Sequence record: OZ413487.1
DNA from: a phage
Length of the DNA: 64,000 bases
Reading direction: 5' to 3' (one strand)
The notes under the pieces are model-generated. The model made no database searches. It was not told the DNA's origin and worked only from the letters and a program-made list of their open reading frames with translations. A program made the position numbers and the translations under genes. Of this stretch, positions 1,154-54,120 are shown in pieces; positions within the stretch are counted from its first letter, which is position 1, and the number at the start of each line of letters is the position of its first letter.

Positions 1154-1162
1154 ATGCTCAGA

Positions 1163-1191
1163 TTGACTATTGTTACAAAATTTGGTAAAAT
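1163..1191 (+). promoter_or_regulatory. sigma70-type promoter (TTGACT-N17-TAAAAT)
   Basis: -35 TTGACT at 1163-1168, 17-nt spacer, -10 TAAAAT at 1186-1191, upstream of the baseplate gene. Confidence 0.55.
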
Positions 1192-1224
1192 ACCTTGTAG
1201 AGATTTTCATACCGGAGGAGTGAC

Positions 1225-2715: not shown

Positions 2716-2726
2716 GGCGGCGAGAT

Positions 2727-6552: not shown

Positions 6553-7137
6553 ATGAAAATACTTCAAGAGTTTAAACTTTACCAACCGGGATCTGGCGAA
6601 TACCACTCCAACAAGGAAACCAAGGAGCTGACCCCTCAAGAGGTTGAGGATTACACCGCATACACTGGGTATTTTTTACGTAATGATGATGGCGATTGGT
6701 ATGTGCAGTCACGAACATTACGACAAGAAAATCCGGGTTGTATCTTCCTACTTGTTGACGAGAAGGGAATTCTTAAGACATCTACAGAAGAACCTGATGC
6801 CTTATGGCCTGCTCCAGGTCTTCGTGTGGTTATCGCCAAAAAAGAAGAGGTACCAGAAAACATTATGCTTCACCACGACGCTTTGCGTTTAGTTGGTGAT
6901 GAATTTGTCACAGATAATGAATTCTTTGTTCAACAGGCAGAGGGTGTCATAGAGACAGAACTTGCTTGGGCTACTGCTAGAATTGGTGCCTATCAAGACA
7001 TGATTGACCTTGAATATGATCTTACTGATGACCAGAAACGTAACATCAGAGATTTGAAAATGTACAGGGTAAAACTTCTTGAAATAGATACATCTAAAGC
7101 CCCTGACATTTTCTTCCCGGAGCGACCTACCCTCTAA
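6553..7137 (+). CDS. hypothetical protein (possible fiber assembly or accessory protein)
   Basis: 194-aa ORF with RBS GGAGGA, located between the two fiber paralogues. Confidence 0.5.
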   Translation: MKILQEFKLYQPGSGEYHSNKETKELTPQEVEDYTAYTGYFLRNDDGDWYVQSRTLRQENPGCIFLLVDEKGILKTSTEEPDALWPAPGLRVVIAKKEEVPENIMLHHDALRLVGDEFVTDNEFFVQQAEGVIETELAWATARIGAYQDMIDLEYDLTDDQKRNIRDLKMYRVKLLEIDTSKAPDIFFPERPTL

Positions 7138-7148
7138 GAGGAGGTGTT

Positions 7149-7463
7149 GTGGAGTTGGATTTGGCGGCATTGTACGGTATCTGCATGGGTACCGTTGTCC
7201 CGATCTGTGTATGGGCTTTCAACCAGTGGCACACCAAATGGAAAGGCATTTCCAAGAGGTTGGATGAACTGGAGAAAGACCTCATCTTAGTGAAAAACAG
7301 TATGGTTACAAAAGATAAACTTGATTCCGTTATCGAGACCCGGTTAAGCAAGCTAGAGGCCGATATTAACGACCTTAAGCAGGATGTCAGGACAGATGTC
7401 TCCGGCATCCGAGCTGATGTACAAAAGATTTTGCACATGCTCGTAGAGCATAGTAAAAGGTAA
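7149..7463 (+). CDS. membrane-anchored coiled-coil protein
   Basis: GTG start after GAGGAGG. N-terminal hydrophobic segment (LAALYGICMGTVVPICVWAF) followed by a heptad-like coiled coil. Terminator downstream. Confidence 0.5.
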   Translation: MELDLAALYGICMGTVVPICVWAFNQWHTKWKGISKRLDELEKDLILVKNSMVTKDKLDSVIETRLSKLEADINDLKQDVRTDVSGIRADVQKILHMLVEHSKR

Positions 7464-7471
7464 ACAAAGGT

Positions 7472-7508
7472 CAGAACGGAAAGGACTCCGTTCTTGCATT
7501 TTGTTCTC
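7472..7508 (+). terminator. rho-independent terminator
   Basis: GAACGGA / TCCGTTC stem followed by a U-rich tract (TTGCATTTTGTTCTC). Confidence 0.6.
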
Positions 7509-7552
7509 TAAAGTGTTAAAATAGTCCTAAGGAATTTTCTCAGGAGAACGTG

Positions 7553-8596
7553 ATGACTAAACCAGTTATCCCTCTTGATATTTGGGCCAATCAGGATGTT
7601 GTGCTTGAAAATACGGGAGAGTTGAATAAATCTCAACCAAAAAAAGAAGAGAGATTGAAAGGTTGGGATATGACACAAAGAGTGGCATGTGAAGTTGTTA
7701 ACTTTGAACTCCACATGCTTTCTGCGTGGTTAAAGCATTTAACAGAAGATGTTGTCCCAGGATGGGATAATAGATTCTTAAGGGTCACTAATAATCTAGC
7801 AGACGTTCCAGACAAAGCTGCTGCACGTCAAGTTCTCAATGTATACTCGCCTGAAGAAATGGACGATCTGTATGTTGACAAGTCTGGAGACATAATGACT
7901 CAGACTCAAACTTTAGGCCTTCAAAGAATCGAGTTTGCATCTGCGTCAACAGACAATGCGGCAATATATACCACCATAACTCCAGACAAGACGACGATGG
8001 ATTTCTGGATTATGGACAACATCGGTGGTGCTGACGGCACAGACCTTGATGATCCTTCTCACCAAATAGACGGGTTCCGTTGGAGATTTCAACCTTCTGG
8101 TGGGCAGCCTGTGTTTTCGGCTATGAAGCTCAATGCTATAACTGCCAACCGTGCAAGACTGGCCATCCAAGGAAATCTTGAATGCAACGATGCAAAAAGT
8201 TCCTCTGCAAATGCCAATGCGGTCACGATACCAAGAGCCACTGTTAACGGACAACAATCCTGCGGAATCGCTCAAATAGGTGGAAGAGTTGATTGTAACG
8301 ATGAAACAGTCAGGGGTCAATATGCAACAGTTGGTGGAAGAAACGTGGTCCGCAGGGTAAATGGTAACGGCGCAGACAGTAGTGGTAACCTTACTATCCC
8401 TATGCCCAGCAGAGGGGTTGATGATGTAAGGATAGCAAACCGTTTCAAAACCACCTACAGAGAGTCAAGAGTCTACCCTGGACATGTGATGTGCTCTGGT
8501 AACTACGCTTATAAACACCCTTATCAAGGTGATTACTGGACAGGTGCTATCCAAAAACTTGTAAATGGTCAATGGATCACTATATCTTATGCTTAA
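7553..8596 (+). CDS. tail fiber protein, paralogue B
   Basis: ATG at 7553 preferred over the track GTG at 7550 because of AGGAGA spacing. Motif KSGDIMTQTQTLGLQRI and the shared termini with 5498..6538. Confidence 0.75.
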   Translation: MTKPVIPLDIWANQDVVLENTGELNKSQPKKEERLKGWDMTQRVACEVVNFELHMLSAWLKHLTEDVVPGWDNRFLRVTNNLADVPDKAAARQVLNVYSPEEMDDLYVDKSGDIMTQTQTLGLQRIEFASASTDNAAIYTTITPDKTTMDFWIMDNIGGADGTDLDDPSHQIDGFRWRFQPSGGQPVFSAMKLNAITANRARLAIQGNLECNDAKSSSANANAVTIPRATVNGQQSCGIAQIGGRVDCNDETVRGQYATVGGRNVVRRVNGNGADSSGNLTIPMPSRGVDDVRIANRFKTTYRESRVYPGHVMCSGNYAYKHPYQGDYWTGAIQKLVNGQWITISYA

Positions 8597-8607
8597 AAAG
8601 AGGGTAA

Positions 8608-8874
8608 ATGAAACTAACTCAGTTTTTATGGGGACTGGTTGCGGCATCTGATGACCCTACGAAAGTGTCCCAAACTAAGCTATGGTCGAACATAGGCATG
8701 GCGGTGATGACTGGGGTGTTTATTCATATGGGGTATAATGATACGCTTCCTGAATGGTATGCGTGGATATACGCGCCTTCAGTAGCTTGCCCCCAGCTTA
8801 TTAGCAAATTCATCTCGCTCCGGTGGGGTTGCCAGCACCCTGACCACGTTAAAAACGAAGAGCAAAAAGCTTAA
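8608..8874 (+). CDS. small membrane protein
   Basis: 88 aa with a hydrophobic helix (IGMAVMTGVFIHMGY); RBS GAGGG. Confidence 0.5.
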   Translation: MKLTQFLWGLVAASDDPTKVSQTKLWSNIGMAVMTGVFIHMGYNDTLPEWYAWIYAPSVACPQLISKFISLRWGCQHPDHVKNEEQKA

Positions 8875-8883
8875 GGAGAAATC

Positions 8884-10629
8884 ATGGCGCAAGACATGAC
8901 AAGCTTTGAGCAGGCGGTAGATCAAGTAATTGTTGATTCTGAACGTTTGCACCTGATTGTCAACGGTAACGCTGTGGATGAAGTTGTCGTAGAGGATGGG
9001 ACCACCATCCCTACGGTACGAAAAGCCATGCTTGACACCCTTTATTTTAAAACGCCACCGATCCCTTGGGCGTATGGTGCATCCACAACAGTTTTTAACC
9101 AGCTGTACGAGTTTAAAGGGGACACAGGCCCTCAGTGGTGGTACGCTCCCGCAGCATCAAAATCTAACCCGGTTAGAATGCCAGCAGATCCTTCACAATC
9201 TCCAAACTGGAGATTATATACCGATTCTGCAGTAATGGCAAAATACTACGCAAAACTTAACAGTCCGAGGTTCGAAGGTGACCCGCGAGTACCTACGCCT
9301 CCAATGGACGACAAATCCGAGTCTATAGCAAACACAGAGTTTGTTGTTGACTATGTGGATAGCATATTTGAAGCCATGGAGGGAATGAAAGTTACTGTAG
9401 GGTCTTTGGTGGTAAAAGGTCTTACAGAACTTGCTAACACTATAGTTGGTGGCACACTCACCTTACATGGGCCTGTTAATGGAGCAGATTCTACTGCACG
9501 CTTCAGGAACCTAATCCTCACGGCAAATACTTCTACACTTACTTTTGCGTGGAGTGATCCTAAGCATGCAGACTGGAGAAGCACAGAGCTGCAACCTCAT
9601 GAAGTGTCCACCCACAGGGTTATAGCTGACACTATAACTTCTGGGAAACCAGTGGCTAATAATAACGATGTGCATTTTGATGGTCTAGGTAATAACTTTT
9701 TTGACTACGTGTACATTCGTGGTAATGCCATGAAGGCAGCAACCGAACCGACATTGCAGGTAGATGGAACCACCAGGGTTAAGAACCTTGAGGTGACAGG
9801 CACTGTTACAGGGATAACCTACTCTGTCGATGGCACCATGATTTACCCTAGCTATATTGAAAGCACGGGGGACGCATTAATAAATGGTGATTTAGAAGTT
9901 GGCGGATCTGTAGTTATTCGAGGTACAGCCTCTATCCAAAACATAGCTCTGAATACCCTAAGAGTCAATGAGCGTGCAACTTTTGAAGGGGAAGGGCTTA
10001 CAGCCAACAAAGGTGTAATTACCGAGCTGACAACCACTACTTTAACTGCAACAACTGCAAACTCTGAAAACTGCAACGTTACCAGAAACTTGCAGGTAAA
10101 TGGAGATGTTAGTTTAAACGCAGCAGGGACGGGCACCACCTACCTTCACAACCTTGAAATATCCGGCACAGTGACTGGGTGGCTGCCAGACTTCTCTAAT
10201 GTCAACTTTGTTTGTAATGGCATTAACTCCAGTGGCAAGATAACCACCTCTCAAGAAATTGAGGCGGGTAAAACCATTACTGCCCCTACTTTCCACGCAG
10301 GAAAGGTAGATTTTGATTTAGAGGAGGTTGACGCGTCCAGTGGGACATGGACACCTAACGGGCAGGCCAGTATGTATGTTGTCCACGCGAAAGGGGATTT
10401 TACAATAGGACAATGGCCTGGTACATCAGCGGAAGATAAACCTTATCCATTCACTGCGGTTATCTATGTCATTCAGGATGCTGTAGGTCACAACGTGACT
10501 TTGCACGATAAGTATGCTATCCTGTCGGCAACGCCTGTTATTAATAACAAGGCTAATAGTGTTACCTTGCTGCAATTAACATATTGTGGTGTTGGTGATA
10601 TCGTAGACGTAGTAATTGCACAACGTTAA
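8884..10629 (+). CDS. tail fiber / tail spike protein (581 aa)
   Basis: Long beta-rich ORF with T/G/N-rich repeats, RBS GGAGAA, in the fiber module, followed by a terminator. Confidence 0.6.
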   Translation: MAQDMTSFEQAVDQVIVDSERLHLIVNGNAVDEVVVEDGTTIPTVRKAMLDTLYFKTPPIPWAYGASTTVFNQLYEFKGDTGPQWWYAPAASKSNPVRMPADPSQSPNWRLYTDSAVMAKYYAKLNSPRFEGDPRVPTPPMDDKSESIANTEFVVDYVDSIFEAMEGMKVTVGSLVVKGLTELANTIVGGTLTLHGPVNGADSTARFRNLILTANTSTLTFAWSDPKHADWRSTELQPHEVSTHRVIADTITSGKPVANNNDVHFDGLGNNFFDYVYIRGNAMKAATEPTLQVDGTTRVKNLEVTGTVTGITYSVDGTMIYPSYIESTGDALINGDLEVGGSVVIRGTASIQNIALNTLRVNERATFEGEGLTANKGVITELTTTTLTATTANSENCNVTRNLQVNGDVSLNAAGTGTTYLHNLEISGTVTGWLPDFSNVNFVCNGINSSGKITTSQEIEAGKTITAPTFHAGKVDFDLEEVDASSGTWTPNGQASMYVVHAKGDFTIGQWPGTSAEDKPYPFTAVIYVIQDAVGHNVTLHDKYAILSATPVINNKANSVTLLQLTYCGVGDIVDVVIAQR

Positions 10630-13600: not shown

Positions 13601-16316
13601 TGAGACTCTGGGCAATGCCGTTGACCCTTATATCATCATGACTGCACTGAGATCAAACATGGACGGGACATCCATGTCTATGCAAATTCCGGTAACAAAC
13701 GGGTACAAACGTGTTGTGATGATCATTAAGTGCGATCTGATCGGGAAGCAAGTTCTTGCAGAAAACGGGACATCCACACATCCTTTTGAGATCGCTCTGC
13801 ACTATCAGTTTGCTGACTCACCTTTTGCAGGGGATAAGAGAATATCTGATACAGACGCACAGCGTTGTAAGAAAGTATTGTTGGGTGCAGGTTGGTGGTG
13901 GTATGAGTTTGATTTAACAGACAAATTCACCGACACGTCTAAAGTTGTAACAGGACTTCGTCTAGACCTTGGCGAGAACATGCACAAAGCTGTTTGTGAT
14001 GGCACCTATGGTGACCCTACAATATACCTAAAATATGTTTCTTTTGAGCATCCGGAAGATGTTGTCTACGGTCCAAAACTGAGATTGTTTGGCAGCTGGA
14101 TTGCAAAAGATAGGGTAGGCATGGGTAAGAAGGTAAGAGGGCTCTTGGTTGATGCAGGAACAGAAGACATGCTGGTTAATGCAGTGTGGCCTGAATTACC
14201 TGGGACTCAGTGGGACAACTCAGCCAAATCTATAAACTGGTTTAACATTCATAGGGCCATGTGGACCACTAACTGCTACTTGTGGAGAGAGCTTAACGAT
14301 CAGGCCTTTGGATTCAGCGATGGTAGAAGGATGGCGATCATTTGCTGGACAACACTGCAAAGATGTTATGACCATGACTATGAGATTGGGGGCAGGGCAT
14401 GGAAAAATATCAGGGATAGAATCATAACCAATTTTGCAGACGACAACGGTGGTGGAGCACATAACTTTGGCACAAGCCGACTCATCCATTTGAACGGATC
14501 CTCAGCCTACAAGAAAGAAGGTTACTCTGGGTCTATGATCGAGTGGGGTCTGGTGAAAGATGCTCGCGTATTGATGGGCCAGCAACTTGCTGCCGCAATA
14601 GGTCCCAGCGCAGTGCAGTCGGTTAAACCAGCGTGGTTCGATATTCCATTGTGGTCACCCGGAACACCGGGAACTGCTGCAATCAACCCTACCACTGGGG
14701 ATCTAGAAATCTCCTGGGAGGACTTGAAGCAGGTCGGTGGTTGGGACAAAACAGGGTACCAGGTTCAGTGGTGGAGAGCTGATGGATCTTTAGCTGCTGA
14801 TGAGTTTGTTAAGGACAATTTCTACACTATGTCCTCTGCAAAAGCACAGCAATTATTTGGTCAGGCAACTCCGTCAACGATCACCATGTCTATGTGCTGT
14901 AAAGACAACAGGACTGGAGCTTTGGGGCCAAGGGTTGCTAAAGTTTTCTCAGGTATTAAATGGAATCTACCTGTCCAAAGTATTTCATGGAAGCAAATAG
15001 GTGATAACAAGCTGCTGGTTACCCCTGCCTGTCAGTTCAACGCAACTCTTAACGTTGATCCTGCTGTTGCGGCAAACTCAGCTAAAGCTTCTGACTTCTC
15101 TGTGTCTAACACTGCTATGGCAGATGTGAGGAAGATTGACACGCTGAACGCCAGAATTACCTGTAAAAACACTTATGGCACATTCCAGATCATCAACAAC
15201 TTCACAGATGCTGATTCTAAGGTAGTGAGGACAGCAAGCCAGACTTTGAGTTTAGGAACTCTGGCCTATGCGGCCCTGATCACTGAACAGTCGGCAACAC
15301 TCCAAGGAGGTGGTGTAGGCAAGTCCATTACAACACCTGTGTGGAAGCCAAATGAGTGGGTTGTGTTTGATTTGACTGTGGACTTCTCCAGCGATAATAA
15401 CTGGACATGGGTAAGGAATTGTTTGTCACAGTTGATGGGCGGTCCAAGCTCCGTTAGTGATAGTCACGACTCTACTGACCCGAGTGTGTTCCAGGTAGGT
15501 AAAACTCACCCAGAGACTGGAGAAACGTTGCCTGACAGGAAGTATGCTTTGGTTTGCATCTCTTACGGGAAGGCAGATGTCACCTTCTCAGGGACACACA
15601 CTTATAACGGAACCTACAACTTCTCAAGGAAGTATAGTCTCAAAGCAGGGAACATTATAGACGAGGTTGGTGTGCTGTATAATCCGGGCAACGGCATAGG
15701 GATTGTTGGTGGTAAACTGCAGATGCAGGAACCTTCTATTACCCCTTCCAACGTATCCGGGATTAGAAAGACTTGGGAAAGTAGTAATACCAACATTGCA
15801 ACAGTGGATGCCACCACAGGACTGGTAACATTTAAAGCTACTGGGAATGTCACCATAAAGTTTGTAGTTACAGATGATGCAGGGCGCAAAACGTCTTCAA
15901 CATCTTTTACTGTCAAACAGATGGCACCACAGTGGAGAATGTGGATAGGTACAGCAACAAACGGGGCATACCCTAATCCGGCAGGTACTTCTGGTATGAA
16001 GACTTTCTCTACAAGCAAACCGATGGAGTACGGCAGCGGTCCTAAGGTAGGGCAGATGGTGTACTTTGGTGCGTATATTCCTGAAATTATAGGGCTTCCG
16101 AGAAGTCAGCTTCAGTTGCTGTTTGGGGCTGGTGTTGACGATCTTGCCACTTTCGGGTATAGCGACAACATCGAGGCTGCAAGGAGTTCAGGATGGGTAG
16201 GGTTCAGAATGGAGTCTGGAAAGGAAGGCAGGATTCTAGGGACAGCCTCTATAGGTGTTATGTTCCCTGGTGACCAGCAGTATCGTCTAGAAGCCTACGC
16301 AACCTTTTCTCGTTAA
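10680..16316 (+). CDS. very large structural protein (1878 aa) with C-terminal Ig-like (Big_2-type) domain
   Basis: Single uninterrupted ORF with RBS GGAGAA. A C-terminal segment (ITPSNVSGIRKTWESSNTNIATVDATTGLVTFKATGNVTIKFVVTDDAGRKTSSTSFTVKQ) has the bacterial Ig-like group 2 pattern. Confidence 0.7.
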   Translation: MLPIPLLKLGRHFLDKRGGIKELAVLSYPIDNSDGTSNTVSYVNSLAILFDDGQLNITGYNRFGECRTGDLDTINYPNEAAWNVDHVWRADRAFVIRTFDNKFFYIGCTAGLIGSEAAGGNDVCVREWTPLPEQIVTGLHLDTHPERLVEVMGGVNNTVWVIAAPEADGMLHLYGSGNNTYGSLHVDKSQHATPVKIGETSESPETGPWKNPRINCEVHDNSVIFGGPNGFWIAGYDFLRNNSKNTLVYPAEHVTLDQFKGIPVGETWKGFMCGPNGAIIATERMHKPDDQQLVNVFYGQDVWGDDTWRSLNITYTHEVIMARGYGTSGIFFNNGTKQYRGFSRNLCNDIGAQSANNSPRANFIHYQALATAKYVEQRLPVSWTESVYFQGIHREGFLGTFTVVNGKLWWSGIPRGSFAGSNNLFGGRLNSQGFTEIPENWYKNVPVDSWGIEDIFDVNGVSNVSNIYIGDTVKMKLKPQPEGATFIIDKIELVNAAGTVVTDANYQFSTNWNHGGANEVVVTQYNRNINRRGLYSIKITYHDKHGTGRTCTTRTLNWNTIVPAYPSNGKWHTVGRNKQFHVNDTVYFGLNGTQPAVEGDTSYMVRLHRMDAGSVTYDVTQEIYDQRRATYDNIVKTQALWKFNPNGKGGKMLQVNEQNGTSLTVHEHPDPWPDPGKPHPGARTLKIVSHDAGYFGIRWEATVRYVDGTTNNIGITLGGTSEDNSLKIAYTPRGISIDNMDVVRNGYGDVNVKVTLGEHLGGERIIMYAFDHDPRTNGTYANQAWSYLINAPEPNTKEFYYGMKRDVCKKTGTHDWIAICVKDERTAWDEPVNRWFIGIPTRSDKYVAEYIVCMGGTNLNMCWNEDVNKYSDYDYMRDYSCNLWFNQTTGYPPRQARVNPAIFTDTQVFLTKQANEVQTFKNNYDPNKWFYNCYGAFFWGPGELPGGGSCLNEATYASDYIMGQVKKYKIIPGPETLGNAVDPYIIMTALRSNMDGTSMSMQIPVTNGYKRVVMIIKCDLIGKQVLAENGTSTHPFEIALHYQFADSPFAGDKRISDTDAQRCKKVLLGAGWWWYEFDLTDKFTDTSKVVTGLRLDLGENMHKAVCDGTYGDPTIYLKYVSFEHPEDVVYGPKLRLFGSWIAKDRVGMGKKVRGLLVDAGTEDMLVNAVWPELPGTQWDNSAKSINWFNIHRAMWTTNCYLWRELNDQAFGFSDGRRMAIICWTTLQRCYDHDYEIGGRAWKNIRDRIITNFADDNGGGAHNFGTSRLIHLNGSSAYKKEGYSGSMIEWGLVKDARVLMGQQLAAAIGPSAVQSVKPAWFDIPLWSPGTPGTAAINPTTGDLEISWEDLKQVGGWDKTGYQVQWWRADGSLAADEFVKDNFYTMSSAKAQQLFGQATPSTITMSMCCKDNRTGALGPRVAKVFSGIKWNLPVQSISWKQIGDNKLLVTPACQFNATLNVDPAVAANSAKASDFSVSNTAMADVRKIDTLNARITCKNTYGTFQIINNFTDADSKVVRTASQTLSLGTLAYAALITEQSATLQGGGVGKSITTPVWKPNEWVVFDLTVDFSSDNNWTWVRNCLSQLMGGPSSVSDSHDSTDPSVFQVGKTHPETGETLPDRKYALVCISYGKADVTFSGTHTYNGTYNFSRKYSLKAGNIIDEVGVLYNPGNGIGIVGGKLQMQEPSITPSNVSGIRKTWESSNTNIATVDATTGLVTFKATGNVTIKFVVTDDAGRKTSSTSFTVKQMAPQWRMWIGTATNGAYPNPAGTSGMKTFSTSKPMEYGSGPKVGQMVYFGAYIPEIIGLPRSQLQLLFGAGVDDLATFGYSDNIEAARSSGWVGFRMESGKEGRILGTASIGVMFPGDQQYRLEAYATFSR

Positions 16317-16329
16317 CAAGGGGGTAAAT

Positions 16330-16359
16330 AAAAAGGGGCCAAACGGCCCCTTTCTTTTT
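16330..16359. terminator. bidirectional rho-independent terminator between convergent genes
   Basis: AGGGGCC-AAAC-GGCCCCT hairpin flanked by an A-tract (5') and T-tract (3'), between the plus gene ending at 16316 and the minus gene ending at 16364. Confidence 0.8.
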
Positions 16360-16363
16360 ATAG

Positions 16364-16564
16364 TTAGTAATACTCCCAACATGCCCCATCTTCAGACGGC
16401 TTGACGCGCTTACCTTTATGGTCAACATAGGTATAGCCACAACCTTCACAAATAACAGGTGCTGCATAACCTTCCTTCCACTGCTTCTCCGTGATCAATC
16501 CTTTCAGATCTCCGCAGTCACGACCAAACAACTCTTCAGAACAGTCTTTACAAAAATCAGCCAT
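16364..16564 (-). CDS. small Cys-rich (zinc-ribbon-like) protein
   Basis: 66 aa with CxxC...CxxC spacing (CKDC ... CEGC). Confidence 0.55.
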   Translation of the reverse strand: MADFCKDCSEELFGRDCGDLKGLITEKQWKEGYAAPVICEGCGYTYVDHKGKRVKPSEDGACWEYY

Positions 16565-16633
16565 CTCTATCAGTCTCCATATTTAACCAATCTATATTAC
16601 ATATTGCCGAAGAAACAGTATTTCATTTCATTA

Positions 16634-24943: not shown

Positions 24944-25200
24944 TGAAAGTGCAGATCTTGACTAATGCCGAGAAGATGTTTATTGAAGATACACCTTTTG
25001 AAGCTGGTGAGCTCCAGTTCATTTATTTTGTTGACTTAGATAAGGTGTTCCCTGCACTGAATCTTGGTCTGGATGAAGTTCCTCATAAGGTTTTGTGCCA
25101 AGTTGTTCGTGCATTAGCGGCAGATGGGGAGTTCCACACCCTTGAAGATGTCCAGACCTACGGGTATCTTGAACTACAACGAGAAGAAGAGGTGGACTGA
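24943..25200 (+). CDS. hypothetical protein
   Basis: 85-aa ORF with ATGA overlap. Confidence 0.5.
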   Translation: MKVQILTNAEKMFIEDTPFEAGELQFIYFVDLDKVFPALNLGLDEVPHKVLCQVVRALAADGEFHTLEDVQTYGYLELQREEEVD

Positions 25201-25202
25201 TA

Positions 25203-25583
25203 ATGGCCCGGTGGAAGACAACAGTTGACCTTCATGATCAGTGGTTAGGACGCATCACTGAAGACGGGAAGCTAGTGGAGTGGGACAATAAGCATGTTAG
25301 CGAGTTGGCAAGTATTGTGGCTGGCAAGTTACGCTCCAAGTTCCCTGAACAACTGGATCCTGATAGTTCAAAGTTCGATCCTGAGTTGGAGGATGTTGTA
25401 TACTACTTCGACACCGTTGATGACTACGACGCGTGGTTTGCAGCACGGGAGCTTTACCCACAAGGCTCTGCTATGCGTCAGATGGAAGAAGATTATCCTC
25501 CGTGTGAGCAATTCAATAGTGCAATGACTTGCCTCTATGATTGGGCAGATAAGAACCTTGTCTGGATTCGGACTGCATTTTAG
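25203..25583 (+). CDS. hypothetical protein
   Basis: 126-aa ORF. Confidence 0.5.
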   Translation: MARWKTTVDLHDQWLGRITEDGKLVEWDNKHVSELASIVAGKLRSKFPEQLDPDSSKFDPELEDVVYYFDTVDDYDAWFAARELYPQGSAMRQMEEDYPPCEQFNSAMTCLYDWADKNLVWIRTAF

Positions 25584-25627
25584 TGGGCAGGAATGGCGGC
25601 AAGGATGCTGCTTAAGGAGTAGTAGAG

Positions 25628-25897
25628 ATGTTATACCAGCAATATGAACTTCGTGCAGAAAAAGAGTTAAATTTTGACAAAGATATTCACAGATATTATT
25701 ATGGGAAAGTTAGAGGGCAAGCAAGAAAGTGTACTCCAACACTCTTTTATGCCAGCAGACGACTAGCGCCAGAAGAGGCAACAGCAGAAAGGGTTGCGTA
25801 CAACTGGAGAGTCACGTATGATATTGACAGATCCGATGTGATATCTGTTTTGGAAAACTTTGAAAACACTTACACACAAGTAGAGGACTTTTACTAA
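25628..25897 (+). CDS. hypothetical protein
   Basis: 89-aa ORF with RBS AAGGAG. Confidence 0.5.
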   Translation: MLYQQYELRAEKELNFDKDIHRYYYGKVRGQARKCTPTLFYASRRLAPEEATAERVAYNWRVTYDIDRSDVISVLENFENTYTQVEDFY

Positions 25898-27081
25898 TGT
25901 CAAGAAACGTATTCGAAAGTGGTCAAATCACTGTCCGTGAGTTGCCAGCTATTATTCAGTTTGCCCAACGTCATAGCCGATCTGTCCTAATTTTGGGACC
26001 AATGGGTGTGGGTAAAAGTCAGGTGATGAAGCAGATCGCTGATAATATGTTCGGTGAGCGAGATGACAACCTTGTTGACGTGCGACTGTCAGATAAAGAT
26101 CCTGCCGACTTATCTGGGCTACCTATCCCTGTAGAGGCGGATGGAACTACACGTACAGTGTTTGCAATTCCAGAATTTTGGCCTGCGGATCCTGACTGGA
26201 GCGGAATTATCTTTCTGGATGAGCTCACTCATGCAGATAACTACCTGCAAAAGGTTGCAATGCAAATTATGCTTGACCACAAGTGCGGTACCTATGCATT
26301 CCCTAAGGGTTCTGTTTTTGTGGCTGCTGGTAACCGTTCTACAGATGGTGCGGTTCTTTCGGCGCTCGAAGCCCCTCTGGCTAACCGTTTTATCATTGTA
26401 GAGGTTACAAGCAATGCAGAGGTGTTTATTGAGGACTACGCATTCCTTAATGGGGTGCACTCCTCTGTAATTGGATATCTGAAAAGAGTTCCATCAGCTA
26501 TCGATAATTATGAGGCCATGGCTGAGATTAATTGTCCATCTTTTGCCACACCGCGATCTTGGGTTGCTGCATCTGATATCTTGCACGATTTTGACAGCGG
26601 TATTATTTCTGACGCTATGGCCCGTGTTCTTCTGCAAGGTGCTATTGGTCACACTGCAGCGGTAGAGATCTGGACATACCACACCAAGAAACGCAATTTA
26701 CCTGAAATCGGTCGGATTATGGCAGGTGGTTGCAAAGAATACGTAGGTCCTAAGCAGCCAGACATTTTGTGGATTCTTGGATCTGAAGGTTGTATCGCTA
26801 TTCGTAATATGATGGAAAATGCAAGTATCTCAGACGAAGATCTTGTCAGCTGCGTGGCAAACTTCCTCGATTTCCTTTGGGAAAACTTCAAGGACGAGAA
26901 CCGAGATTTTGTATTCTCAGTCTTTATGGCGATGATGAAACCTAATGCCTTAGGAAATGCCTTGCTTATCGGCAAAGGGCGTGACAAGATTGTTGCTCAG
27001 CTGATCAAAGCATACCCAAACCTGATGAAGATTGTAAAAGAGTTTGGTGAAGAGTTTAGCGCCATTTTGGCTAAAGCTTAA
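25897..27081 (+). CDS. MoxR-like AAA+ ATPase (AAA_5 / CobS-like)
   Basis: Walker A (LILGPMGVGKSQ), Walker B (IIFLDELTHAD) and a sensor-1-like AAGN segment, in a 394-aa protein. Confidence 0.65.
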   Translation: MSRNVFESGQITVRELPAIIQFAQRHSRSVLILGPMGVGKSQVMKQIADNMFGERDDNLVDVRLSDKDPADLSGLPIPVEADGTTRTVFAIPEFWPADPDWSGIIFLDELTHADNYLQKVAMQIMLDHKCGTYAFPKGSVFVAAGNRSTDGAVLSALEAPLANRFIIVEVTSNAEVFIEDYAFLNGVHSSVIGYLKRVPSAIDNYEAMAEINCPSFATPRSWVAASDILHDFDSGIISDAMARVLLQGAIGHTAAVEIWTYHTKKRNLPEIGRIMAGGCKEYVGPKQPDILWILGSEGCIAIRNMMENASISDEDLVSCVANFLDFLWENFKDENRDFVFSVFMAMMKPNALGNALLIGKGRDKIVAQLIKAYPNLMKIVKEFGEEFSAILAKA

Positions 27082-27090
27082 GGGGGTTGT

Positions 27091-27471
27091 ATGGCTAAAG
27101 TAGGTAAGCGGGGAAACTGCCTGGTGGTATTGACCGAGGAGCCGGAGAAGGAGTACGAATGCAGCTCCACTTGCGTGATCGATATCCGAGAAAAAGATGT
27201 AGATGAAATCTGGTTTAAAATATTGGACGCTTGCGACAGCAGTGATTATTTCTTCATCTATGTCAACGATAAGGCTGGGTTCTTCCATGACGACGGAGAG
27301 TTGCCGTATGAAATCTATGAACTTGTAGAGGCTTGCCATCGTGGAGATGCGGAGTTGTTTGGCTTACGGCTGAAAAGCGGTAAATTCTTCTATCAAGATG
27401 AGTGCATGAATCTTCATAACTTTGTAGAGGGAACTTGCAACGATGGAGAGATTTTGGCACACTATGATTAA
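27091..27471 (+). CDS. hypothetical acidic protein
   Basis: 126-aa ORF followed by a terminator. Confidence 0.5.
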   Translation: MAKVGKRGNCLVVLTEEPEKEYECSSTCVIDIREKDVDEIWFKILDACDSSDYFFIYVNDKAGFFHDDGELPYEIYELVEACHRGDAELFGLRLKSGKFFYQDECMNLHNFVEGTCNDGEILAHYD

Positions 27472-27479
27472 TTTCTAAG

Positions 27480-27511
27480 ACCTCCCCCGCTTCGGCGGGG
27501 ATTTTCTATTT
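27480..27511 (+). terminator. rho-independent terminator (CCCCGC-UUCG-GCGGGG)
   Basis: Same hairpin core as the terminator at 1125, followed by ATTTTCTATTT. Confidence 0.7.
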
Positions 27512-27520
27512 GGAGTTATT

Positions 27521-28021
27521 GTGAAAATTAAGATCTTTGCTATTATTTTGAGCGCATTTTTATCGCTGCCTGTTGTTGCAGCACCAAAACAAAAAGTATA
27601 CCATACTTGCAAGCCATCAGATACTAAGGAAAACATTCTAGCATGCAATATCTACAGGGAAGCTAGAGGGGATGGCACGATGGGTATGCTGGCATCTGGG
27701 TTTGCCACCCTAAACAGGAAATCTCACCCCAAATACCCAGACACCATAAGAAAGATTGTCTACCAACCTAACCAGTTTTCGTGGACAAACCACGGCAAAA
27801 CTTTTAAGGTGACAGAAAAAGATTCATGGGATCACGCTAAAAGTCTTGCAAAGATGCTTCTAAAGGTCTATAATAACAACCATGTTGCATACATGGCTAT
27901 GGACATAACAGGTGGAGCAACACACTACCATACAACCAAAGTACGACCGAAATGGGCAAAAAAGATGCAGAGGACAGCTCAATTCGGGAGTCATATCTAC
28001 TACAAGGAGCGCAATAAATGA
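27521..28021 (+). CDS. secreted cell-wall hydrolase, SleB / Hydrolase_2-like
   Basis: N-terminal signal-peptide-like segment (MKIKIFAIILSAFLSLPVVAAP) and motifs NIYREARGDG ... VYQPNQFSW matching the spore-cortex-lytic / cell wall hydrolase family pattern. Confidence 0.6.
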   Translation: MKIKIFAIILSAFLSLPVVAAPKQKVYHTCKPSDTKENILACNIYREARGDGTMGMLASGFATLNRKSHPKYPDTIRKIVYQPNQFSWTNHGKTFKVTEKDSWDHAKSLAKMLLKVYNNNHVAYMAMDITGGATHYHTTKVRPKWAKKMQRTAQFGSHIYYKERNK

Positions 28022-28563
28022 TTGTAAACAGTAATGAAACTAAAGCAGTACTAACCGGAAATATGGAGGTCACCAGGGGCTCAATTTCTCTGAACAAAGA
28101 GACTTTTGGGCTAATCATTAAAGGGATTTACGAAGATAAGGTGCTGGCAAGCTGCCGTGAACCAATCTTCAATGCTGTGGACTCTCATGTTGAGTCTGGA
28201 CGGGGTGATGTACCGATCATCATTCACTCCCCTACAGACCTTGAACCATACTTCTTTGTGCAGGACGTTGGATTGGGTATGTCAGAAGAGATGGTCCGCA
28301 ACACTTTCATGAACCTCGGGGAGTCAACCAAGCGCAACAGCAACGCTCTGGTAGGTAATAAAGGTGTAGGTTCAAAGGCCCCGTTCAGCATGGTTGACCC
28401 TGCAGATGTGGTTAGTGTGCCATACCAACACAATAGCGCCAAGTGCCGTGCATGCCGCTATGAGATTGTGGTAGCTCCGGAAGCACGCAAAGATGGAGAC
28501 CCTATTGAATATGTAGTTGATCGTGACGGTAACACTATCGACATTCTTTACGAGGAGGCGTAA
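28018..28563 (+). CDS. small GHKL-fold (histidine-kinase-like ATPase) protein
   Basis: Bergerat-fold boxes in canonical order: N-box EPIFNAVD, G1 DVGLGM, G2 GNKGVGS. Confidence 0.4.
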   Translation: MIVNSNETKAVLTGNMEVTRGSISLNKETFGLIIKGIYEDKVLASCREPIFNAVDSHVESGRGDVPIIIHSPTDLEPYFFVQDVGLGMSEEMVRNTFMNLGESTKRNSNALVGNKGVGSKAPFSMVDPADVVSVPYQHNSAKCRACRYEIVVAPEARKDGDPIEYVVDRDGNTIDILYEEA

Positions 28564-29933
28564 TGGAAAAAGGGCAGTATGATGTAGGCACAGATGCTGC
28601 CCTCGTTGCAATCATGAGCGGTGAGAATGTCTTCGTTTCAGGACCTGCAGGTTGTGGGAAGACGTATCTCATCAACATGATCCAGTCGATGTATGGAGAC
28701 TCTTGCATAACGGTTGCCCCGACAGGGGTAGCCGCTTTAAACGTTAATGGAGCAACAGCACACCGAACCTTCGATCTTGCAGCAGGTGTGAGCATGGAGT
28801 CAGACTGGACCGCAATAAGGGCAAAAACAGCAAAGCCTTTGAAAAGCAAGGCATTTACCATCCTAATTATCGATGAAATCTCTATGATCCGTGCTGATAA
28901 GTTTATAGAGATGGATAGGAAACTCCGCTTCCTTCGAAAAAATGACAAACCTTTCGGAGGCATACAGGTCATATTGTTTGGCGATTTTTACCAGGCACCT
29001 CCTGTTGTCTCTTCTATGGAGAAGGAAGCCTACTTCAACTTCTACCATACGGACCTGTGTTGCTATACCGAATCTTGGAAAGAGCTTGACCTCCACAACA
29101 TAGCCCTAATAGATCAGTTCCGACAGGAGTCTATTCGATTTGCCACAATGCTCAACTGTGTTCGTGAGGGTCGTCGCATAAAAGAGGTTGTAGCAGAACT
29201 TAATGCTCGCTGTTACAAAGGAGGTGTACCAACAGATGCTCTCACAATTTGCGCCACCAACAAACAAGCAGAGGAAGTGAACAGAAGGTTCTATGATGCC
29301 ATCAACGCCCCAGAGAAGGTATACACTGGTGAAATGAAGGGTAAGTTTCCCTCCACCCTGCCAGTTGAGCAGGAGATGAAGTTGAAAATTGGCATGAAAG
29401 TTATGATAACCGCCAACGATGTTGACCCGACGCACAAAGTACCTTATTATGTTAACGGAACACGTGCCACAATTGTTAAATTTAAGAACAAGGCGGTGGT
29501 GGTAGAGCTTGAAGATGGAACACAGGTTGACATAGAGCAGAGGTTGTGGGAGAATAACGAGTATAAGCCATCTCAGAGATACAACATTGCAGAAAGGAAG
29601 ATGGAGAAGTTTATAGAGAGGGTAGTGATTGGGTCATACAGGCAACTTCCTCTGAAATCTGGGTATGCCGTAACATCTCATAAAAGTCAAGGACTTACGC
29701 TAGATTGTTACAACCTGGACCTTGGAAAGAACGGAGCTTTCTCTCCTGGGATGACGTATGTTGCTTTGAGTCGGGTTAAGACAATACAAGGAATAAACTT
29801 GTTGCGTCCACTAAGAGAAGTTGACATTATTGTTGACCCGCGAGTCGTAGAGTTTTACAATACAACATTCCCTGACTTAGACAAAATTGTCAGGAAAGAT
29901 TTTGAAACCAGAGCCGAAGAGGGGGACGTATGA
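28563..29933 (+). CDS. dda: Dda-like SF1 DNA helicase (RecD/Pif1-like)
   Basis: Walker A SGPAGCGKT, Walker B ILIIDEISM, C-terminal SHKSQGLT ... YVALSRVK motifs and a size (456 aa) comparable to T4 Dda. Confidence 0.7.
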   Translation: MEKGQYDVGTDAALVAIMSGENVFVSGPAGCGKTYLINMIQSMYGDSCITVAPTGVAALNVNGATAHRTFDLAAGVSMESDWTAIRAKTAKPLKSKAFTILIIDEISMIRADKFIEMDRKLRFLRKNDKPFGGIQVILFGDFYQAPPVVSSMEKEAYFNFYHTDLCCYTESWKELDLHNIALIDQFRQESIRFATMLNCVREGRRIKEVVAELNARCYKGGVPTDALTICATNKQAEEVNRRFYDAINAPEKVYTGEMKGKFPSTLPVEQEMKLKIGMKVMITANDVDPTHKVPYYVNGTRATIVKFKNKAVVVELEDGTQVDIEQRLWENNEYKPSQRYNIAERKMEKFIERVVIGSYRQLPLKSGYAVTSHKSQGLTLDCYNLDLGKNGAFSPGMTYVALSRVKTIQGINLLRPLREVDIIVDPRVVEFYNTTFPDLDKIVRKDFETRAEEGDV

Positions 29934-30271
29934 GTTTGTGGAGAAATATCGTTAACTACGTGTGCGGCAATCCAACTCCTGAAGAGAAGGATGTTGTGAT
30001 TCACGATTTTACTAAAAGATCTCGTGAAAAAGATCTACTGCTAACAAAGGTGACTGATAAAGATCCTGCAGTAGGGGACTGGGCAGGTTTTGCGTTTACA
30101 TCGGACAAATACACCTTTAACAAAGGTGACTACCTTGTTGTGGATTTTAACGAAGACATTGAGGGTGCTGAACCTTACTATCAAACCCTTATTGTTGCAG
30201 GGTGTGTTGATCTCTCTGCAGGCATGCACAGTTTGATTCTTTTTGAGCTTGACTCTGAAGACCTTGAGTAG
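29930..30271 (+). CDS. hypothetical protein
   Basis: 113-aa ORF with ATGA coupling. Confidence 0.5.
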   Translation: MSLWRNIVNYVCGNPTPEEKDVVIHDFTKRSREKDLLLTKVTDKDPAVGDWAGFAFTSDKYTFNKGDYLVVDFNEDIEGAEPYYQTLIVAGCVDLSAGMHSLILFELDSEDLE

Positions 30272-30331
30272 TAAGATGTGAGTATAAAGGGGAGGCACTC
30301 CTCCCCACAAAAACTAAGGAAGCACTAAACG

Positions 30332-30634
30332 ATGAAACGTTATAAACCATACACTTTTGAAATCGATTTCGAACTTGACGATATGTTTACTGTGGAAGCT
30401 CAGGCAGTAGTTCAGTTGCCAGATCCGGAGTGCCGGGATTCTGATGTTGACTGTTACGGATTTAGACAAATCACCGATGTGCATGTTTACCACAACGGTG
30501 AAGAGGTGGACTTCCACCAACTGCCAAACGATATGCGCCACTCAATTTACAAACGTGCAGCCCGTGAACTAGAGTCCTATCTGGATGCAGCGACGACAGC
30601 AGCTGCATTTGCTGAAGAAGTGGGAGGTTTCTGA
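30332..30634 (+). CDS. hypothetical protein
   Basis: 100-aa ORF with RBS AAGGAAG. Confidence 0.5.
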   Translation: MKRYKPYTFEIDFELDDMFTVEAQAVVQLPDPECRDSDVDCYGFRQITDVHVYHNGEEVDFHQLPNDMRHSIYKRAARELESYLDAATTAAAFAEEVGGF

Positions 30635-31029
30635 TGATTACAGGTGTGAAGATTATCCAATACCACTTAACCAAATTGGAAGATGCTGAAAAAGAGCTTG
30701 CAGAAGTTCTGAATAGTGGATATACTTTACTATCATGCGCCTGCTCAGACACATACGCTGTGTGGACACTTATCCGGAAGGAAGAGCCTGCGTGGATCTT
30801 GGTGCCAAACCCTAAGATCATTAGTGAGGTGGATGACTACGCTCAGGACGGCCTGCCAGAAGGCTGGGAAGTATGGGAAGGTGGTGAAAACCCTGCACCA
30901 GGTAAGTGGGTAAAATACAAACTACGTAGCGGTGCACAGTACGCTGACTACTCTGATGACCTGGACTGGAGTCATTCTTCACCAGGATCATCTGCAAGTT
31001 CATATGATATCGTAGCTTTTCAGGAATAA
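30634..31029 (+). CDS. hypothetical protein
   Basis: 131-aa ORF. Confidence 0.5.
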   Translation: MITGVKIIQYHLTKLEDAEKELAEVLNSGYTLLSCACSDTYAVWTLIRKEEPAWILVPNPKIISEVDDYAQDGLPEGWEVWEGGENPAPGKWVKYKLRSGAQYADYSDDLDWSHSSPGSSASSYDIVAFQE

Positions 31030-36890: not shown

Positions 36891-37166
36891 AAATAACATT
36901 GTGGCTTCATAGAGTAATCTATGTCGAATAACCTCTTTAACTGCGGGAAGCCTAAACCTTATGGCAAGGTAATCCGCAACGAAGCGCTCAAAAGAGCGAA
37001 CGCTCAGAGGCCATTCCGAAAGGAAGTAGACCAGCAAGTGCGGTCGAAATGGGAGGATTCCTGTGGTTGCTTATCATAGGAATATGAGATGGTCCGATCC
37101 TACGTGAAAACGTATGGCTATGCACGTAATGGTGCGGGGTAGCTTAACGACCTACCTGAACTATTG
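36891..37166 (+). other. intervening sequence in the DNA polymerase gene; candidate group I self-splicing intron
   Basis: 276 nt with no credible ORF. The 5' exon ends in U (CAU), the insert ends in G (...CUAUUG), and a GUGG near its 5' end can pair with exon CCAU to form P1 with a U-G wobble. Joining the flanks restores IIYYH-DEYQLQV. Confidence 0.6.
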
Positions 37167-41933: not shown

Positions 41934-42512
41934 ATGAAATGCAAACGTTGTGGAGAGGACAAGGAGGCCTCCGACTTCTACACCAGTAACAAATCAACGT
42001 GCAAAGAGTGTTGCAAGAAGGCCAGCAGGGAGGCTGACCAATTTGCTAAAGACTCTTCAGAAAAAGGTGTAATACGTGTGTTGTACAAGGCTCAAAAGTG
42101 CAACAGCAAGCAAAGAGGTCACCCTCCTCCGACTTACACCAAAAAAGAGTTTAAGGAGTGGCTATACCTTAACGGTTACAAAGAGTTGTATGATCAGTGG
42201 GTAGCCAGCGGATACGACAAAAGGAAAAAGCCTTCTTGTGACAGGATAGATGATTTCAAAGGGTACTCTTTTGATAATATCCGTTTAACGACTTGGGGAG
42301 AAAATAAAGACAAGCAGACAGAGGATATTCTGTTACATAGAAGCACCAGCGGTAGACGGTGCAAAAATGTAAGGAGGTTGGACATGAATGGTAACGTTCT
42401 TAAAGAATGGGTATCTCACAACTCTTGTAGCAGAGAAACCGGAATATATATTGGTTACTACATTCATGAAAAAATTCCAGCTCCAGATGGATACTTATAC
42501 GAATACTTTTAA
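41934..42512 (+). CDS. HNH-family endonuclease-like protein with N-terminal zinc ribbon
   Basis: CKRCG ... CKECC zinc ribbon and a DRIDDFKGYSFDNIRLTTWGEN core resembling HNH_3-type homing endonucleases, with the His position substituted. Confidence 0.4.
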   Translation: MKCKRCGEDKEASDFYTSNKSTCKECCKKASREADQFAKDSSEKGVIRVLYKAQKCNSKQRGHPPPTYTKKEFKEWLYLNGYKELYDQWVASGYDKRKKPSCDRIDDFKGYSFDNIRLTTWGENKDKQTEDILLHRSTSGRRCKNVRRLDMNGNVLKEWVSHNSCSRETGIYIGYYIHEKIPAPDGYLYEYF

Positions 42513-51750: not shown

Positions 51751-52122
51751 ATGGAATTTATTATTTTGGCTGTAGTAGTTGCCTTGTTCAACGCCTGGAT
51801 CGCTGGCAAGATAGGTAGATCCGCTTTTCTATGGTTTGTTATATCTATTTTCCTGGGAGTGGTTGCAACTATTGTATTGGTTATCCTTGCAATTGTTGAC
51901 AAGGGCGATAATAGAAAGGGTAAAGTGTTTTCCGACCTGTATGACGCACAAACGTTTGTCAACGCCTATTATAGTGATCTTCCAGTCTCCCTACGCTGCA
52001 GCCTGGCACAACAGGTTTTTGATGAGGCTAAAACCAGAGACCAAGCCCATGAGATATGTTTAACTGAAGCGGATCGCCTATTTGAGAGGAATAGAAAATA
52101 TGTGGACCAGCCGTTTAAATAA
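51751..52122 (+). CDS. membrane protein (two predicted transmembrane helices)
   Basis: ATG at 51751 after AAAAGAGG; hydrophobic helices FIILAVVVALFNAWIAG and LWFVISIFLGVVATIVLVILAIV. Confidence 0.55.
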   Translation: MEFIILAVVVALFNAWIAGKIGRSAFLWFVISIFLGVVATIVLVILAIVDKGDNRKGKVFSDLYDAQTFVNAYYSDLPVSLRCSLAQQVFDEAKTRDQAHEICLTEADRLFERNRKYVDQPFK

Positions 52123-53706: not shown

Positions 53707-54120
53707 AAGAGTTGTCGAGGGGGAGGCCCCCAATCGTTGACCAGATAGATAGGAGTTAAAATCATGGCTATTGTTACCGCTGGCTATCTTCAAAGATGCG
53801 GAAGCAAAACAACGCCGGATCTCAATACATGAGATCATCAACCTTAACGCTGGAGGCACACCATACCGCCCAGGACCTGGCCGTGAGATGGACAATACGC
53901 TAGCGATCCTGAAGATACGCCGTAAACGGTCCTCCCTTACTCTGGACTCATTACACACAATGCAGCCTCCGTTCCAGGTGACCGGGAAACGGATCGCCAG
54001 GTCCTGGACAAAGGCCAATGATCGGACCGTATAAATAAAAGTGTTTTGGTACTGATTTTGGGGTTGACTTGTTCGGCCCCTTTTGCTATTCTTATTAAAC
54101 GGGCGGCACTTGGGAACAGG

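Follow-up and report, generated by a model that had tools for sequence, protein, structure and literature searches.

What is a small protein with the nucleotide-binding motifs of a GHKL ATPase doing directly behind a secreted cell-wall hydrolase in a phage genome? The question arises from a phage sequence (record OZ413487.1), of which a stretch of 64,000 nucleotides (nt) was analyzed; this whole stretch is referred to as the window. An earlier note, made from the letters of the sequence alone, had described two open reading frames (ORFs) on the plus strand, at 27521-28021 and 28018-28563, and both are indeed present. The first codes for a SleB-like hydrolase. The second codes for 181 residues, which the note took for a minimal anti-sigma-type kinase or ATPase with no obvious role in a phage. 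By comparison with related phages, the 181-residue 'GHKL' ORF is instead the remnant of a deletion that joins the start of rIIA to the end of rIIB, and as such has an obvious phage origin in these two genes. Overall, we consider it probable that the locus carries a repeat-mediated deletion scar of rIIA and rIIB that recurs in rV5-like phages, and that the hydrolase beside it is an ordinary one. The features central to this reading are listed below, with phage AlexBoehm as the reference relative.

27521-28021, plus strand: SleB-like cell-wall hydrolase (Hydrolase_2) of 166 aa, with a GTG start, a GGAG ribosome-binding site at 27513-27516 and a catalytic domain at aa 51-161
28018-28563, plus strand: in-frame rIIA(1-126)::rIIB(347-401) deletion fusion of 181 aa, assigned from PHROG matches, blastn against AlexBoehm, comparison of translations and tblastn
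28018-28394, plus strand: rIIA-derived part of the fusion, the N-terminal GHKL segment, identical to AlexBoehm rIIA up to 28394
28395-28563, plus strand: rIIB-derived part of the fusion, the last 55 rIIB codons and the stop, with the block DVVSVP...CRYEIV and the ribosome-binding site of the helicase gene, GAGGAGG
28389-28420, plus strand: hybrid repeat copy, seen as the 32-nt overlap of the two BLAST segments, with the crossover in CATGGT (28389-28394), rIIB-specific bases starting at 28395

The region is 97-99.5% identical at the nucleotide level to E. coli Vequintavirus phages (rV5, AlexBoehm, inoa and others); for the window, nucleotide identity to AlexBoehm and rV5 amounts to 96-99%. Its GenBank matches comprise 121 phage records with 80-99.5% identity, about 100 of which are E. 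coli Vequintaviruses, and AlexBoehm positions 30454-99424 are colinear with the whole window, save a handful of indels. Judging by these matches, the window derives from a Vequintavirus, an rV5-like myophage of E. coli. Every annotated relative examined displays the same gene order: a MoxR ATPase, a 126-aa hypothetical protein, the hydrolase (501 nt), rIIA, rIIB and a helicase. The two genes between hydrolase and helicase are full-length in the relatives (rIIA, 1983 nt and 660 aa; rIIB, 1206 nt and 401 aa). There, overlaps exist between the stop codon of the hydrolase gene and the start of rIIA, and between the rIIB stop and the start of the helicase gene; in all of the 117+ relatives, the hydrolase is thus coupled to full-length rIIA. 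In the window it is the 181-aa ORF that is joined to both neighbors. Its stop overlaps the helicase start (TAATG), and its start overlaps the hydrolase stop (ATGA) with a ribosome-binding site, AAGGAG, upstream, which confirms the translational coupling proposed earlier.

Alignment of the window with the AlexBoehm locus (L002) by blastn resulted in two segments. Window positions 25001-28420 correspond to 964-4379 of that locus and positions 28389-31000 correspond to 7001-9612, which leaves a gap of 2653 bp. No copy of the deleted 2.6 kb of rII DNA was found elsewhere in the window. The protein comparisons give the same partition. Residues 1-134 of the fusion match only columns 1-134 of the 725-column RIIA profile (PHROG 612, E = 1e-55), with no homology over the full length of RIIA, and residues 124-152 match RIIB families of PHROG. 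The precomputed Pfam assignments are PF13589 and PF26926 (Phage_T4_rIIB), the latter located on the C-terminal remnant. In tblastn searches, the fusion aligned with rIIA residues 1-134 and rIIB residues 345-401 only; over its last 57 residues, identity to the rIIB C-terminus is 100%, and homology over the whole rIIB core is absent. Altogether, the fusion has lost 81% of rIIA and 86% of rIIB. The rIIA part is 96.7% identical to GenBank alleles, and a separate deletion clade was considered as the reason. This was rejected, as the mismatches fall in the rIIB-derived portion of the repeat.

The N, G1 and G2 Bergerat boxes that had drawn attention to the 181-aa protein are genuine: they are visible, conserved, and accompanied by a Pfam match above the cut-off. 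The N box is EPIFNAVD (E48-D55), the G1 box DVGLG (D83-G87) and the G2 box GNKGVG (G113-G118), the motif columns being invariant. HATPase_c_3 (PF13589) is matched with E = 7e-7 and 29.8 bits (gathering cut-off 25) over profile positions 11-105 of 137. As regards the completeness of the GHKL fold, this match stops at position 105 of 137 and the residues after 126 come from rIIB. The full-length rIIA of a relative aligns with residues 1-196 of T4 rIIA, the conserved N-terminal domain being approximately 190 aa long; about two thirds of this domain are retained in the fusion, which leaves rIIA just past the G2 box. For full-length rIIB, the alignment with T4 spans residues 172-371. The core of T4 rIIB is located at approximately 106-303, and the DVVSVP block corresponds to T4 rIIB residues 279-303. 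An AlphaFold2 model of the fusion, based on a 9-sequence alignment, had a predicted local distance difference test score of 42 and is uninformative on folding. As for the proposed anti-sigma-type kinase, no family of anti-sigma serine kinases (SpoIIAB/RsbW) was detected either in the Pfam scan at E ≤ 1, which returned PF13589 and a weak PF02518 (E = 0.13) only, or in NCBIfam at E ≤ 0.01.

What could have brought the two gene ends together? Full-length phages carry a 32-nt imperfect direct repeat (26 of the 32 positions identical, 81%), with one copy in rIIA at nt 372-403 (CATGGTGGACACTTTCGATGTGATTAGTGTGC) and the other in rIIB at nt 1032-1063 (CATGGTTGACCCTGCAGATGTGGTTAGTGTGC). In the AlexBoehm locus the copies are at 4348-4379 and 7001-7032, at a spacing of 2653, and constitute the top direct-repeat family (D1) of the rII locus. 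The longest exact block within the repeat is 9 nt. Against the 26 observed matches, codon-shuffled controls had a mean of 21.3 (standard deviation 0.8, maximum 24). The copies encode strand-like peptides, MVDTFDVISV in rIIA and MVDPADVVSV in rIIB, and both reside in blocks that are conserved in T4, namely the post-G2 strand of rIIA and the DVVS[VI]P...C.YE[IV]V block of rIIB. The idea that rIIA and rIIB are paralogs was dropped, since in BLASTP they resemble each other in the MVDxxDVxSV strand alone (E = 1.0). In the window, the 2653 bp that separate the repeat copies were removed by recombination or replication slippage. Because the reading frame of rIIB is +1 with respect to rIIA and 2653 equals 1 modulo 3, the resulting fusion is in frame. 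By the same frame arithmetic, every crossover within the repeat yields the same 181-aa in-frame product.

We then asked how widespread the deletion is. The junction was not found in approximately 117-121 GenBank phage records, IMG/VR, JGI metagenome contigs, GTDB genomes or complete E. coli genomes. In contrast, look-up of exact proteins in the Logan and ENA assemblies revealed the deletion in at least 10 samples, on about 19 contigs in total. Two Logan contigs encode the exact 181-aa protein, and their flanks differ from the window by 2-3%. Its 90% protein cluster contains six further 181-aa variants, residing on contigs of up to 133 kb that include near-complete genomes. Several of the deletion contigs are named as metagenome scaffolds (VISC19-1_..._METAG, ZHAN20-1_..._METAG). 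For a comparison of abundance, the exact hydrolase sequence is found on 668 contigs and one exact rIIB sequence on 329. Literature searches returned no report of rII deletions in Vequintavirinae.

The deletion alleles differ in the position of the crossover. Junction type J1 (CATGGT) is shared by the window and contigs L003, L004, L015, L016 and L018, type J2 (GATGTG) is represented by L011, and type J3 ((T/C)AGTGT) by L012, L013, L014 and L017. The alleles also belong to two lineages about 5% apart, one AlexBoehm-like and the other similar to L008, a full-length IMG/VR contig, with lineage-specific single-nucleotide polymorphisms (SNPs) immediately on both sides of the junction. In phylogenetic trees of the flanks (1.3 kb on the left and 1.5 kb on the right), deletion alleles interleave with full-length phages. 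The left flank of the window is 0.30% from AlexBoehm and its right flank 0.20% from inoa; the right flank of L003 is 0.00% from AlexBoehm, and that of L018 is 0.2% from L008. Four of the contigs (L003, L011, L012 and L017) have near-identical left flanks (0.00-0.15%) and different right flanks. Because a shared left flank comes with different right ones, the flanks have clearly been exchanged among Vequintaviruses. Three crossover points, two lineages and the interleaving with full-length phages together indicate that the deletion recurs and that the repeat is a hot spot. At least two independent origins are needed to account for these data, and at least five are likely.

Other lesions of the rII genes were found on Logan/ENA Vequintavirus contigs from the same protein cluster. 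One contig (L028) has a J3 fusion with an extra frameshift that splits the product into 101 and 57 aa. Another (L027) carries a 2613-bp deletion with a different 6-nt junction, which is out of frame (89 and 92 aa). Two deletions, of 157 and 1419 bp, are present in L026, with junction overlaps of 9 and 8 nt, and L025 has a frameshift in rIIA. Since frameshifted fusion, out-of-frame and multiple-deletion alleles all exist, it is the inactivation of rII that recurs and not a particular protein. Moreover, the in-frame status of the fusion is uninformative on function because it is forced by the geometry of the repeat. The fusion is thus most likely a non-functional scar of rII loss. Short proteins that cover only the rIIA N-terminal GHKL segment are also encoded elsewhere. 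These proteins (P0002-P0008; 142-239 aa), such as the 202-aa SP40_76 of Salmonella phage 40, match that segment alone with 56-70% identity and may stem from rIIA genes that are truncated or split in other groups of phages.

Both the deletion and its product have counterparts in T4. The r1589 mutant of Benzer and Champe is reportedly the rIIA-rIIB fusion of the genetic-code frameshift experiments, which lacks the last part of rIIA and the first part of rIIB and retains B activity. Like r1589, the window allele has a deletion over the cistron boundary that puts the 5' part of rIIA in frame with the 3' part of rIIB, giving a single polypeptide. However, it has lost far more (14% of rIIB is left), it belongs to a Vequintavirus and not to a T-even phage, and such alleles come from environmental assemblies rather than from a laboratory mutant. 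According to classical work by Pribnow, Singer and others, short direct repeats are where spontaneous rII deletions of T4 end, and the other Vequintavirus rII deletions likewise have junction overlaps of 6-9 nt. In contrast to the T4 deletion sites, the Vequintavirus hot spot is longer (32 nt, 81%), lies in conserved coding blocks, has three sub-sites and gives a constant in-frame product.

Work on T-even phages also suggests why rII might be lost. In T4, both rIIA and rIIB are non-essential unless RexAB is present, and a T4 stock with an r1589-like rIIAB fusion is RexAB-sensitive (PMC8594841, S5 Fig). RIIB has been reported to trigger a Lysobacter CARD/NLR-gasdermin defence, and T6 escapers that are rIIB-null become RexAB-sensitive (PMC10312443). 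In these escapers, rII loss is selected at a RexAB cost, which offers a selective rationale for natural rII loss. They differ from the present alleles in being laboratory-selected point frameshifts or stops in a T-even phage, and an RIIB-sensing defence in the hosts of Vequintaviruses is an extension by analogy. Following this analogy, rII would be dispensable on hosts without Rex-like exclusion, and its loss may bring an advantage where a host defence senses RIIB. The rII-deleted Vequintaviruses might accordingly be either neutral variants on Rex-free hosts or escapers from an RII-sensing defence. An in-frame deletion would, in addition, keep ribosomes moving from the hydrolase to the helicase start. 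Because translation would then reach that start, the in-frame 2653-bp deletion may be the commonest surviving rII lesion.

The other half of the question concerns the hydrolase. It matches Pfam Hydrolase_2 (PF07486) over profile positions 2-100 of 100 with E = 2e-19 and 70.4 bits (gathering cut-off 27), and PHROG 938 with E = 2e-27, a family labeled 'endolysin' there and in some records. It also aligns with the catalytic domain of SleB (PDB 4F55, E = 2.5e-6). In this alignment NIYREARGD is positioned opposite AVYGESRGE with the Glu motif in register, and the aligned Glu is the one that we take to be catalytic in SleB structures. The protein is not SleB proper, as TIGR02869 reaches 48.3 bits against a cut-off of 236.5 and is matched at profile positions 83-201 alone. 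Compared with the Bacillus SleB/CwlJ spore-cortex enzymes (4F55, 4FET), it has a homologous catalytic domain with the conserved Glu-containing motif aligned. However, it is without their N-terminal peptidoglycan-binding domain, is encoded by a phage, bears a predicted Sec signal and is associated with a Gram-negative host. The N-terminus, MKIKIFAIILSAFLSLPVVA followed by AP, reads as a predicted Sec signal peptide of aa 1-20 (27521-27580). Inspection by eye reveals an n-region with positive charge (MKIK), then a hydrophobic core of 16 residues and a putative cleavage site between VVA and A. The earlier identification of a Hydrolase_2 enzyme is supported by the Pfam score, and its signal peptide is predicted from our reading of the sequence.

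The same note considered that this enzyme may be unusual, which for this phage group it is not. Its exact sequence on the 668 contigs equals the rV5 protein ABI79074.1 (100% identity), and every deletion carrier has an intact copy of the gene. SleB-like hydrolases that bear a signal peptide have been reported in all genera of Vequintavirinae (PMC7344957). Among the homologs, CB7_83 has a reported signal peptide and is toxic in E. coli, and CR3_087 has been implicated in lysis (PMC7344957). The window hydrolase shares with these Vequintavirinae proteins (CB7_83, CR3_087, ABI79074.1) the domain and the position outside the lysis cassette, along with a predicted signal peptide, and in the protein itself there is no difference. 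AlexBoehm encodes a separate endolysin (bas56_0202; PHROG 90, E = 3e-56), and i- and o-spanins as well as a putative holin are also annotated in relatives. Within the window, there is only one other lysis-related candidate:

51751-52122, plus strand: putative holin ortholog (AlexBoehm bas56_0110), 123 aa with two hydrophobic segments, assigned from colinearity and the AlexBoehm annotation

In PHROG, this candidate belongs to family 13090, described only as 'unknown function'. The hydrolase does lie away from other lysis genes, as had been observed. The earlier note had named a canonical endolysin and holin elsewhere, combined with a lack of muralytic activity in the hydrolase, as what would refute its reading. 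The separate endolysin, the spanins and the putative holin of the relatives agree with the first part of this condition.

An IMG/VR search based on the hydrolase returned three loci, two of which are full-length Vequintaviruses and the third a distant one (L010; contig 3300009092_000012). The homolog in the latter (5815-6384) is 38% identical, has a hydrophobic N-terminus and is located between dCMP-deaminase-like and ligase-like ORFs; rII genes were not found beside it in this locus. In Certrevirus, the gene downstream of the hydrolase is a small holin candidate with two transmembrane segments, not rIIA (PMC7344957). Because the neighbors in L010 and Certrevirus differ, the hydrolase-rII linkage is specific to rV5-like phages. 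As a separate observation, the N-terminus of AlexBoehm rIIB (L002 5970-7172) has a weak SPOR-domain match (E = 0.0014, under the cut-off), and many NCBI copies are named 'SPOR domain-containing protein'. This match may point to a peptidoglycan-binding link to the adjacent hydrolase. In sum, the hydrolase is an ordinary, already described Vequintavirinae gene, the product of which is predicted to be Sec-exported, muralytic and accessory to the endolysin, spanin and holin genes. Candidate roles include that of an accessory lysin, wall remodeling or something else.

Several points weigh against interpreting the locus as a recurrent, non-functional deletion scar. The evidence comes from assemblies, and some of the populations may be mixed. 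The deletion is present in none of approximately 117 GenBank isolates and on about 19 assembly contigs, a contrast that could reflect sampling. Heteroduplex repair in crosses with full-length phages could account for part of the junction diversity. The fusion keeps the two best-conserved blocks of the rII proteins, each recognizable even in T4 (the GHKL motifs of rIIA and DVVSVP...CRYEIV of rIIB), in frame and with both translational couplings. Its inactivity, most likely as we consider it, is deduced from sequence comparison, and selection by an rII-sensing defence in Vequintaviruses is something we infer by analogy. Some of these points can be developed into alternatives. An assembly or sequencing artefact, in which the real genome has full-length rIIA and rIIB that were mis-joined at the repeat, would agree with a junction inside the repeat and with the lack of GenBank isolates carrying the deletion. 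It is extremely improbable nonetheless, because the longest exact block of this imperfect repeat (9 nt) is far below assembler k-mer sizes and because the contigs agree with each other although they stem from several projects and more than one assembler (Logan, ENA metagenome scaffolds, a SPAdes NODE contig); the three junction types and the lineage-specific SNPs point in the same direction. A single ancient deletion allele could also have spread by homologous recombination among Vequintaviruses. Their genomes are mosaic with exchanged flanks (L003, L011, L012 and L017), and heteroduplex repair over the 81%-identical repeat could interconvert junction types. We find this unlikely, given that junction-adjacent SNPs are lineage-specific on both sides in the AlexBoehm-like and L008-like alleles, that deletion alleles nest in full-length clades in both flank trees, that the crossover has three positions, and that unrelated rII deletions at other microhomologies indicate a generally deletion-prone locus.

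Alternatively, the fusion might be a functional, selected 'mini-rII' with some rII activity (membrane protection or counter-defence) or with a new one. It retains blocks from both parents that are conserved from Vequintavirus to T4, both couplings and ribosome-binding sites are intact, and the allele has persisted, being present in 10 or more samples and on near-complete genomes. Furthermore, the rIIB strand MVDPADVVSV stands in for the similar rIIA strand MVDTFDVISV, and because of this replacement the HATPase_c_3 match ends at the profile position where that of full-length rIIA ends. A precedent is the T4 r1589 fusion, which reportedly retains rIIB activity. However, r1589 retains most of rIIB, whereas the present fusion has lost 86% of rIIB along with 81% of rIIA, and of the approximately 190 aa that form the conserved N-terminal domain of rIIA, only about two thirds are left. 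The fusion allele is itself frameshifted in L028, and L026 and L027 have multiple-deletion and out-of-frame alleles. An in-frame product is the automatic outcome of how the repeat copies are placed, and two synonymous differences among the three closest alleles are too few to show purifying selection. We therefore regard a functional fusion as rather unlikely. A more elaborate proposal, in which the repeat is a built-in switch and populations toggle, irreversibly per lineage, between full rII and a deleted state with a mini-protein of residual function, seems quite unlikely to us. The full rII state would then be Rex-resistant but visible to RIIB-sensing defences, and the fusion might serve, for example, as a dominant decoy or a minimal membrane-protecting module. 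If true, the fusion would mark out the smallest part of the long-enigmatic rII proteins that still functions. Very improbable, finally, is a stand-alone minimal GHKL ATPase or kinase that partners the secreted hydrolase as an unusual endolysin or superinfection enzyme. The HATPase_c_3 score above the gathering threshold, the N, G1 and G2 motifs and the real ATGA overlap with the hydrolase are in its favor, as are the 'endolysin' label of PHROG 938, the implication of CR3_087 in lysis and the toxicity of CB7_83 in E. coli. Its GHKL part, however, is refuted by a protein that is residue for residue the rIIA N-terminus followed by the rIIB C-terminus, with no match to anti-sigma kinases and with full-length rIIA as the partner in the 117+ relatives. 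The separate endolysin and spanins of relatives, together with the missing hydrolase-rII linkage in L010 and Certrevirus, speak against the remainder.

The surroundings of the locus, which the earlier note had placed inside a replication module, contain the following features.

25897-27081, plus strand: MoxR-type AAA ATPase (PHROG 1297 'ATPase', E = 2e-110), annotated as MoxR in AlexBoehm and inoa and conserved in Vequintaviruses
27091-27471, plus strand: conserved 126-aa hypothetical gene (PHROG 12370, E = 2e-87), present in all related loci
27485-27510, plus strand: terminator-like hairpin CCCCGC-TTCG-GCGGGG followed by a T-run (ATTTTCTATTT), from a terminator scan and the sequence, just upstream of the hydrolase
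28563-29933, plus strand: Pif1/Dda-like SF1B helicase of 456 aa (Pfam PIF1, E = 1e-32; PHROG 325 Dda-like helicase, E = 9e-112)

The terminator-like element upstream of the hydrolase (a G+C-rich hairpin and T-run, 27485-27500 in the scan) and the Dda-like helicase downstream were both correctly recognized from the sequence. The placement in a replication module holds with respect to the adjacent helicase, and the MoxR ATPase and the rII genes make the neighborhood accessory or anti-defence just as much. The ortholog of the ATPase in Bas54, bas54_0063, has been reported as necessary against the predicted defence system DS-28. Because of this reported anti-defence role and the presence of rII genes, the neighborhood looks like an accessory/anti-defence block and not a pure replication module.

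Outside this block, the window differs from its relatives at a number of sites. The 1.3-kb adenine methyltransferase gene of rV5, inoa and slur16 is missing at 30272-30331, and also in AlexBoehm, representing a presence/absence polymorphism. The DNA polymerase gene of AlexBoehm is split by an insert of about 570 bp that carries the annotation of a putative homing endonuclease; in the window, the gene is without this insert (at approximately 36955-37025). An insertion of about 600 bp with respect to AlexBoehm is made up of a 192-aa EndoVII/HNH-like endonuclease ORF (41934-42512, plus strand; PHROG 1035, E = 3e-32), probably that of a free-standing homing endonuclease. Small hypothetical genes that take up about 2.3 kb in AlexBoehm (86521-88833) are missing at approximately 53777-53784, and further small indels are found at 54.9-56.6 kb. 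Between 16000 and 24000, GC and AT skew flip sign, coinciding with a minus-strand block of small genes like that at 46.8-50.2 kb of AlexBoehm; positions 16065-16591 are merely 79% identical to AlexBoehm. Among the database records, 16 'Campylobacter phage' entries (GenBank MG065646-MG065682; host C. jejuni) match E. coli Vequintaviruses here with about 99% identity, and these are probably mislabeled or contaminant genomes.

For annotation, the locus carries a warning that a small GHKL-like ORF with good Bergerat motifs can be the scar of a gene fusion. As an event, a natural and recurrent rII hot spot that resembles r1589 is a fresh example of a well-known type. Phages related to rV5 are used in biocontrol and therapy cocktails. 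Their rII status could influence host range on lysogens, and polymerase chain reaction across the junction would be an easy screen for it. For rV5-like phages themselves, the findings mean that a Benzer-style rIIA-rIIB deletion fusion arises naturally and repeatedly, alongside other rII lesions. The rII genes are thus often lost in this group. This fits a recently described trade-off, RII proteins being able to overcome RexAB while setting off other defences.

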